A DNA stretch of 64,000 nt from Escherichia coli (GTDB lineage: Bacteria; Pseudomonadota; Gammaproteobacteria; Enterobacterales; Enterobacteriaceae), in assembly GCF_003991155.1 (NCBI RefSeq), contig NZ_CP031295.1. One strand, written 5' to 3'. Below are positions 1-1,380 of the stretch, in pieces (positions within the stretch are counted from its first letter, which is position 1; every line of letters starts with the position of its first letter). Position numbers and translations under genes: made by a program. The notes beneath the pieces were generated by a model. The model was not told where the DNA came from, did not search any database, and saw only the letters and a program-made list of their open reading frames with translations.

Positions 1-367
1 ACGGTTTTGGCCTTTTCGCCATTCTGTTGGCTCGGTTATTAGCATCAACAGCTTTGTAATAGCGTCTGCCCCGATTACGCTGAACTTCACGTGAGATCGT
101 CGAAGGACTGCGATTCAGCGCAGTAGCTATCGCACGAATGCTCATTTTGGCTGACAAACCAGCTCGTATCTCCTCGCGCTCAGACAGTGTCAGGTGAGCT
201 ACAGCCCGCTTACGCTCATGGGGTTTTATGCCGCCAGTATCCCTTAACATAGTGAAGATCGTTCCGGGTTTTGAACCCAGGATATTCGCTATTTCACTGA
301 AGCCTGTTCCGTTCTTCCATAGTTCAAAAACAGAGGCTTTTTCCTCTGCTGTAAATGTTCGTCTCAT
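1..367 (-). CDS. insI: IS30 transposase, N-terminal part (3' end outside window)
   Basis: Reverse-complement translation from 367: MRRTFTAEEKASVFELWKNGTGFSEIANILGSKPGTIFTMLRDTGGIKPHERKR..., a helix-turn-helix N-terminus recognisable as IS30 Tnp. Confidence 0.85.
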   Translation of the reverse strand, partial: MRRTFTAEEKASVFELWKNGTGFSEIANILGSKPGTIFTMLRDTGGIKPHERKRAVAHLTLSEREEIRAGLSAKMSIRAIATALNRSPSTISREVQRNRGRRYYKAVDANNRANRMAKRPKP

Positions 368-429
368 TCAAAAAACCTCCGCAACCCCATGTTTTCACAT
401 AACTGTTGCGTTGACCAATTGAATCTACA
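1..429 (-). mobile_element. IS30, partial (continues beyond window start)
   Basis: Reverse strand from 367 downward encodes the IS30 transposase N-terminus; reverse complement of 396-429 reads TGTAGATTCAATTGGTCAACGCAACAGTTATGTG, matching the IS30 terminal repeat as I recall it. Confidence 0.85.
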
Positions 430-1328
430 GCGGCGTACTTCGCAAAGCTGTCCGACTGAGGTACGCCTTTATCCGTGACAACTCCTGTTGCTGGCCTGTT
501 CGCCTGCTCTGTCGGGTGCTGGATGTTCATCCCAGTGGTTTTTACGCCTGGCTTCAGCAGCCGCATTCACAACGCCATCAGGCAGACCTGAGACTGACAG
601 GACAGATTAAACAGTTCTGGCTGGAATCGGGATGCGTCTATGGTTATCGCAAAATCCATCTGGATCTGCGTGACAGCGGGCAACAGTGCGGAGTAAACAG
701 AGTCTGGAGACTGATGAAACGTGTCGGAATAAAGGCTCAGGTCGGATACCGAAGCCCGCGGGCACGTAAAGGCGAGGCCAGTATCGTGTCACCCAACAGG
801 CTCCAGCGACAGTTCAATCCGGATGCTCCTGATGAGCGTTGGGTAACGGACATAACCTACATCAGGACCCACGAAGGCTGGCTGTATCTTGCCGTTGTTG
901 TTGATCTGTTCTCACGCAAAATTATCGGCTGGTCCATGCAATCCCGGATGACAAAGGACATTGTCCTGAACGCACTGCTGATGGCTGTATGGCGGCGTAA
1001 TCCCGAAAAACAGGTGCTGGTTCATTCGGATCAGGGCAGTCAGTACACAAGCCATGAGTGGCAGTCGTTCCTGAAATCACACGGCCTGGAGGGTAGCATG
1101 AGCCGTCGCGGTAACTGCCATGATAATGCGGTTGCAGAAAGTTTTTTCCAGTTGTTGAAACGTGAACGGATAAAGAAAAAGATCTACGGAACGCGGGAAG
1201 AAGCCCGCAGCGATATTTTTGATTACATCGAAATGTTTTATAACAGTAAGCGTCGGCATGGTTCCAGCGATCAGATGTCACCGACAGAATATGAAAACCA
1301 GTATTATCAACGGCTCGGAAGTGTCTAG
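430..1328 (+). pseudogene. IS3-family transposase OrfB (DDE domain), N-terminally truncated
   Basis: ORF 516..1328 carries the IS3-family catalytic core (WVTDITYI, DLFSRKIIGW, HSDQGSQYTS, CHDNAVAESFF); the frame begins mid-protein (PSGFYAWL) next to the IS30 terminus. Confidence 0.75.
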
Positions 1329-1380
1329 ATTATCCGTGGCGATTCATTTTGTGTTACAATTCAGTATATACCAGTTTAGC
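430..1380 (+). mobile_element. IS3-family element remnant (IS911-like) interrupted by IS30; right boundary approximate
   Basis: OrfB-type transposase frame directly abuts the IS30 end at 429/430 with no orfA upstream; right end inferred about 50 bp after the orfB stop. Confidence 0.55.

Follow-up and report, generated by a model that had tools for sequence, protein, structure and literature searches.

The window, by which we mean the whole stretch of 64,000 nucleotides of Escherichia coli DNA analysed here, begins inside a copy of IS30 that abuts the remnant of an IS3-family element between positions 429 and 430. This raises the question of how the two elements came to be joined, what became of their missing parts, and whether the junction is informative about the replicon that carries it. 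The window represents a segment of an IncF-type plasmid: F-like tra genes are located at 39-64 kb, and the plasmids most closely related to it belong to IncFIA/IncFIB by typing. IS30 transposes by a copy-out-paste-in mechanism, makes use of hot-spot sequences and duplicates 2 bp of its target. The features around the junction are collected in Table 1.

Table 1. Features at the IS30/ISX junction (positions in the window; nt, position within the respective element).
Feature	Position	Strand	Evidence
Left 429 nt of IS30 (element nt 1-429)	1..429	-	429/429 vs K-12 IS30A; remainder beyond window start
IS30 transposase gene, first 122 codons	2..367	-	ATG at 367-365; Pfam HTH_38, E 5e-26
IS30 left terminal inverted repeat, 26 bp	404..429	-	Reverse complement TGTAGATTCAATTGGTCAACGCAACA = first 26 nt of K-12 IS30A
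ISX 3' fragment (nt 313-1229)	430..1346	+	914/917 identity to L003:1189-2417
GC, the one visible copy of the IS30 2-bp target duplication (ISX nt 313-314)	430..431	+	BLAST segments overlap there (L004, L013)
orfB-frame remnant of ISX transposase, pseudogene	432..1328	+	Pfam HTH_21, rve, rve_2, rve_3; integrase core complete
ISX right inverted repeat, ~33 bp, imperfect, outer 13 bp exact	1314..1346	+	End ...GGCGATTCA
Plasmid DNA flanking ISX, part of neither IS	1347..1380	.	Homology to full-length ISX stops at 1346; flank also in L004 and L013

The matches to both elements are far above chance (BLAST E = 0). The IS30 part reads backwards, as nt 429->1 of K-12 IS30A (L005:2042-3262), and since positions 404-429, read on the opposite strand, give the left inverted repeat TGTAGATTCAATTGGTCAACGCAACA, IS30 ends exactly at 429. 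An earlier note on this DNA had placed the terminal repeat there as well, and the 26 bp are identical to those of K-12 IS30A. The complete 1221-bp IS30 with both of its ends is absent from the window, which holds nt 1-429 only. Of the transposase, the N-terminal 122 residues with the HTH_38 domain are included and the C-terminal DDE part lies beyond the window; in the identical plasmids PGAP treats this stretch as a pseudogene and labels it 'IS30-like element IS30 family transposase, missing C-terminus'.

The outer element was at first guessed to be IS600, a candidate that was rejected as the K-12 IS600 fragment shows no BLASTN similarity to it. In K-12 MG1655 a 312-bp 'insertion sequence:ISX' (insX, b4505) is annotated at 280114-280425, abutting IS30B, which consists of the last 181 nt of IS30 (1041-1221). 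Together with the adjoining GC this ISX corresponds to nt 1-314 of the outer element at 98.7% identity. As the annotated ISX matches and IS600 does not, the outer element is called ISX throughout.

A full-length, 1229-bp copy is present in E. coli O55:H7 DEC5B (L003). It possesses imperfect inverted repeats of ~33 bp, exact over 13 bp at the tips (TGAATCGCCACGG...), an orfA with HTH_Tnp_1 and an orfB with HTH_21 and rve, and PGAP marks it as 'programmed frameshift'. Its slippery site is A7G at nt 303-310. The joining of orfA and orfB by a -1 programmed frameshift (A6-7G) is thus a feature of the full-length copy that is missing from the fragment in the window, where the slippery site is absent together with everything to its left: the left inverted repeat, the promoter region and the portion of orfA that precedes the frameshift site. 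What the window contains is therefore a fragment of an IS3-family member and not a functional member.

The break between IS30 and ISX lies 2 nt after A7G, within the last 10 codons of orfA. The earlier note had described an OrfB frame that starts at 430 without orfA or a start codon; the absence of an orfA and of a start stands, whereas the break falls inside the end of orfA and the frame is open from 432, running to a stop at 1326-1328 with a GTG at 516 as the earliest listed in-frame start. The remnant matches rve with E 1.4e-33 in Pfam, and HTH_21 and rve_2 are matched too; in the identical plasmids PGAP calls the same stretch 'IS3 family transposase, missing N-terminus' (pseudogene). At its right end, ...CCGTGGCGATTCA, the element stops at 1346. 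The end at 1380 that had been assumed earlier is thus 34 nt too far, into plain plasmid DNA. The reverse complement of the right repeat, TGAATCGCCACGGATAATCTAGACACTTCCGAG, was compared with the left end, TGAATCGCCACGGGTTTAACAGACACCTCAGAG. Ends of the 5'-TG...CA-3' type are found, the right one (...GGCGATTCA) in the window and the left one (TGAATCGCC...) in full-length copies only.

How the two fragments were joined becomes apparent from relatives in which the structure is still whole. Plasmid pF138-3 (L013) and the LR-28, S43 and cq9 chromosomes (L004, L049, L051) carry the arrangement ISX 1-314, inverted IS30, ISX 313-1229, and the intact nested form is also found in plasmids NZ_CP172141.1, NZ_AP027814.1 and NZ_CP192622.1. 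In L004, L013, L049 and L051 the dinucleotide GC is duplicated around IS30 and no ISX sequence is lost. In L004 and L013 the last letters of the ISX 5' part are ...AAAAAAAGCCGC and the first letters of the 3' part are GCGGCGTACTT; both halves are contiguous, with the GC as their overlap, in the uninterrupted L003, where ISX continues directly across nt 312-315. IS30 insertion is described to entail a 2-bp duplication and the targeting of hot spots (PMC9333248). The nesting of IS30 in an IS3-family element, which the earlier note had put forward together with a search for a short duplication next to IS30, is borne out by the uninterrupted ISX and by the two halves with duplicated GC in the relatives, one copy of this GC lying inside the window.

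These relatives also bear on a different origin of the junction, namely an IS30-mediated adjacent deletion or inversion, or a recombination between two IS30 copies, that ended in ISX. IS30 does generate deletions and inversions (PMC9333248), and K-12 IS30D, which lies between the 5' halves of IS911 and of IS600, is such a hybrid. In the relatives, however, one IS30 separates the two ISX halves, exactly 2 bp are duplicated and no ISX sequence is lost, which is the signature of a simple insertion, and we regard an origin by deletion or recombination as very improbable.

The neighbours downstream of ISX, i.e. a 93-aa ORF, IS1, an integrase gene and mipZ (MipZ), are common to pF138-3 and the window, and therefore the plasmid arrangement is likely descended from the intact form. 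A 1.7-kb probe running from the ISX 5' half through IS30 and across the junction was matched over at least 80% of its length in 211 records belonging to 204 E. coli genomes, in several contexts.

Some further observations concern the ends of the composite. A 2.45-kb ISX::IS30 composite is found in several unrelated contexts of E. coli chromosomes (L049:1805-4256, L051:1802-4253, L050:1807-3773), which comprise yeeJ/shiA, the cobU region and a prophage lysis module. A 3-bp duplication around the composite, as a sign of its movement as a unit, was present at none of the three chromosomal sites, and a 3-4 bp target duplication around ISX was likewise not found, the flanks being different in L003, L004/L013, L049 and L051. 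The composite may move as a unit, spread through recombination between ISX copies or arise anew at each site, and secondary rearrangements may account for ISX copies that have no flanking duplication. For ISX in its plasmid context (window 1347-1360, L013:5108-5119) the left flank reads ...GACCAC and the right flank TTTTGT..., again no duplication, and this mismatch suggests a rearrangement at one ISX end. The IS30 copy in the LR-28 chromosome (L004:2883-4000) has an internal deletion of ~100 nt, with IS30 nt 611-698 unaligned and the aligned blocks overlapping by 16 nt in the locus; the PGAP call is frameshifted.

Since the window begins inside IS30, its upstream neighbourhood has to be judged from related plasmids. 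Six of those sampled (p13C1065T-2, pPT62-tetX-108kb, pEH09-18-41_3, pSAL4445-1, pVPS18EC0801-2 and pMEI122; loci L001, L002, L006, L010, L011 and L012) are 100% identical to window 1-1800. In all six a 1310-bp IS3-family element, bordered by a 3-bp duplication (CTG), interrupts IS30 at nt 879-881. This element starts with TGAACCGCCCCGG and is probably IS629/IS1203-like. The derived order is IS30 nt 1-881, the 1310-bp IS3-family element, IS30 nt 879-1053 and then unrelated DNA, where DUF3800 and korC-like genes would be expected. IS30 stops at nt 1053 in five of the six plasmids, which are those where that side survives, and in four sampled relatives with the haplotype of the window IS30 is composed of nt 1-881 and 879-1053 only and has no right end. 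L002 and L011 are more degraded on the IS30 side than the other four; in pPT62 an IS26 truncates the inserted 1310-bp element, and in pVPS18EC0801-2 an ISEc23 is located between the inserted element and the IS30 remnant.

Were the arrangement intact, IS30 nt 430-1221 would be followed by ...GCGGCTTTTTTTAATATG (ISX nt 314->1). Neither the ISX 5' part nor the IS30 right end occurs within 5-6 kb upstream in the six plasmids, and ISX nt 1-312 and IS30 nt 1054-1221 are found nowhere in the complete plasmid pEH09-18-41_3, which is collinear with the window. Within the window itself there is no missing ISX half and no extra copy of IS30 or ISX. The expectation in the earlier note that the orfA half would be situated just beyond IS30 is probably wrong for this lineage, given six identical plasmids whose upstream 5-6 kb are free of it.

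Over positions 1-1800 the window is separated from loci of the intact type by three differences (264, 1470, 1670) and from those of the derived type by none. From this identity to the derived type, set against three SNPs to the intact one, we infer by linkage that the window's replicon most likely has the derived upstream form. The best database matches to the first 25 kb of the window reach 99.9% and none 100%, and therefore the window's replicon may differ from the sampled relatives. It could accordingly be asked whether it is still whole, with a complete IS30 followed by the ISX orfA half and the GC duplication just upstream. That arrangement does exist, in pF138-3, NZ_CP172141.1, NZ_AP027814.1, NZ_CP192622.1 and several chromosomes. 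We consider it quite unlikely for the window, as positions 1-1800 are identical to six plasmids of the broken form and differ three times from pF138-3, as IS1 is followed downstream by rclA like in the broken-form plasmids whereas pF138-3 has no rclA there, and as the inspected top matches to the first 25 kb were all of the broken form.

Taken together, we hold it for highly probable that the junction is an inert relic of an IS30 nested in ISX, the upstream part of which was hit later in the lineage. IS30 inserted in inverted orientation into ISX at GC 313-314, only 2 nt past the -1 frameshift site A7G, and thereby split the orfAB transposase gene and left ISX dead. This event is old; it predates the plasmid lineage and is also seen in E. 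coli chromosomes including that of K-12. In the IncFIA/FIB lineage the 1310-bp IS3-family element would then have entered IS30 at nt 879-881 under duplication of CTG, and a later deletion or recombination most likely removed IS30 nt 1054-1221 along with the ISX 5' part. The order of events, IS30 into ISX first and the second insertion and the truncation later, is the parsimonious one. The window is thus left with two dead fragments joined at 429/430, one with the IS30 left end and the transposase N-terminus, the other with the ISX right end and an orfB that cannot be started. Neither is able to move by itself, and their sole likely activity is to offer homology for recombination with other copies of IS30 or ISX.

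The region ~1800-4800 of the window is IS-dense, with IS1 (transposase 1812-2509, minus strand), next rclA (2591/2619-3943) and then IS26, and the same is seen in L001 and L006. Directly after ISX, at 1430-1711 on the plus strand, lies the 93-aa ORF, annotated as hypothetical; a Pfam search with it gave no match, and it is conserved with the junction in the plasmids and in the LR-28 chromosome. Plasmid pEH09-18-41_3 contains a second ISX 3' fragment at 62915-63345 (L053; nt 799-1229, 97% identical), which adjoins an IS26 and with which the ISX fragment of the window might recombine by homology.

The position of the insertion deserves closer attention. The ISX target reads ...ATATTAAAAAAAGCC[GC]GGCGTACTT... 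and contains GCCG|CGGC, a perfect palindrome of 8 bp that has the duplicated GC at its centre and an A-run beside it. In ISX, IS911 and IS600 alike, the duplication corresponds to the first two nucleotides of the codon after ILKKA. We scanned for both IS30 ends with a pattern that was blind to the flanks, in one genome per species, and obtained 38 ends with usable flanks. Of these IS30-type ends, 26 are located at the codon after (I/L)LKKA in the orfA/orfB overlap of an IS3-family element, and for 21 of the 26 an adjacent IS3-family protein match was found by phmmer; one more phmmer-positive end, the 22nd (L025), is also in orfB but not at the position in the frameshift window. The targets amount to about ten IS3-family elements (IS911-like, ISX, those of Yersinia, Shewanella, Marinomonas, Woeseia, Marinifaba and Saccharospirillum, and others), to which K-12 adds IS600. 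The inserted elements are 68-100% identical to IS30 and share the same terminal 26 bp.

ISX alone was hit at least three times independently: in the E. coli type, in the opposite orientation in Silvania (L022), and by an IS30 with 10% divergence in Kluyvera (L042). This recurrence lends some weight to the view that IS30 hit ISX separately on this plasmid and was not inherited with a pre-formed ISX::IS30 composite, the more so as the ISX flank of the diverged Kluyvera variant is 100% identical. The plasmid and chromosomal copies nevertheless share their orientation and are at least 99.5% identical in IS30 and ISX, apart from the degraded IS30 of LR-28, which fits common descent, and a separate hit appears rather unlikely to us; the content of the window is the same either way. 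As a side observation, an ISX-like element (80% identical) in Candidatus Symbiopectobacterium (L021:6239-7457) contains a 44-nt remnant of the IS30 right end at the hot-spot position, which may be the footprint of an IS30 loss.

A crude empirical half-site profile (T-13, A-11, A-10, G-5, C-4) is common to IS3 and non-IS3 targets, and the recurrence is therefore most simply explained by a resemblance of the conserved slippery-site region to the nearly palindromic target of IS30. We tentatively propose, as a possibility that stays somewhat short of an even chance, that IS30-type elements have a natural hot spot in the -1 frameshift window of IS3-family elements, with the first two nucleotides of the codon after (I/L)LKKA as the duplication. 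A literature search gave no report of IS30 nested recurrently in IS3-family elements; Olasz et al. 1998 was outside this search and may cover the point. A 24-bp IS30 target consensus is said to have been published by Olasz et al. 1998, and the ISX site was compared with the empirical profile instead; the best IS30 target in that study is reportedly the consensus of genomic insertion sites.

For the junction itself these results reduce what can be made of it. The earlier note had regarded it as a useful lineage marker, and this view is weakened: the same dinucleotide was hit independently, in opposite orientation and by a 10%-diverged IS30 variant, and the junction is therefore homoplasic; being widespread (211 records, several contexts) in addition to sitting at a recurrent target, it is a weak marker. 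Annotators and plasmid typers should not use the IS30/ISX junction for this purpose. For these plasmids more can be learnt from two markers on the upstream side, outside the window: the 1310-bp IS3-family element inserted at IS30 nt 879-881, and the truncation of IS30 at nt 1053. As found, the locus, which belongs to the accessory region of an IncF plasmid, is of little importance: the dead scar of one IS inside another, old, widespread, already annotated and with no function of its own.

The hot-spot pattern may be the only part that is new. If it were true and undescribed, IS30 would be a habitual parasite or inactivator of IS3-family elements, or would find safe havens in them. What experiments have defined as the 'genomic hot-spot consensus' of IS30 would, if the reading holds, largely represent the IS3-family frameshift window. 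Were the pattern undescribed, it would offer a simple natural explanation for the preference of IS30 for a long palindromic target, and a clear example of an IS family that preferentially inactivates a different one.

Among known systems, the natural hot-spot targets of IS30 (e.g. lambda LHS), which are nearly palindromic, resemble the ISX site in that the latter is palindromic and possesses the half-site features of non-IS targets. The interruption of IS911 by IS30A is on record (PMC9333248). This K-12 IS911A::IS30A (270206-272190), ...ATATTAAAAAAGGCT[AC]CGCG..., again has IS30 inside a member of the IS3 family, where the codon following ILKKA, immediately 3' of A6G, is hit and 2 bp, AC, are duplicated; it differs in that the outer element is IS911, for which BLASTN gives no similarity to ISX, that the IS30 orientation is opposite and that IS30A is intact. 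Around K-12 IS30D with its IS911B and IS600 fragments (4507125-4509801) both flanks end at the same frameshift-window position, the IS600 5' half with ...ATATTAAAAAAAGCAAC and the IS911B 5' half with ...ATATTAAAAAGGCTAC. Unlike ISX::IS30 this is a hybrid, and two different IS3-family 5' halves round one IS30 imply a later recombination between IS30 copies. The closest counterpart is K-12 ISX/IS30B (279931-280425), which agrees with the window in the outer element, the insertion dinucleotide and the relative orientation. K-12 has the ISX 5' part and IS30 nt 1041-1221, cut off by IS1B, whereas the window has the IS30 left end and the ISX 3' part on an IncF plasmid. The nested insertion is thus already known in kind and, annotated as fragments, in this very instance: K-12 carries its complementary half.
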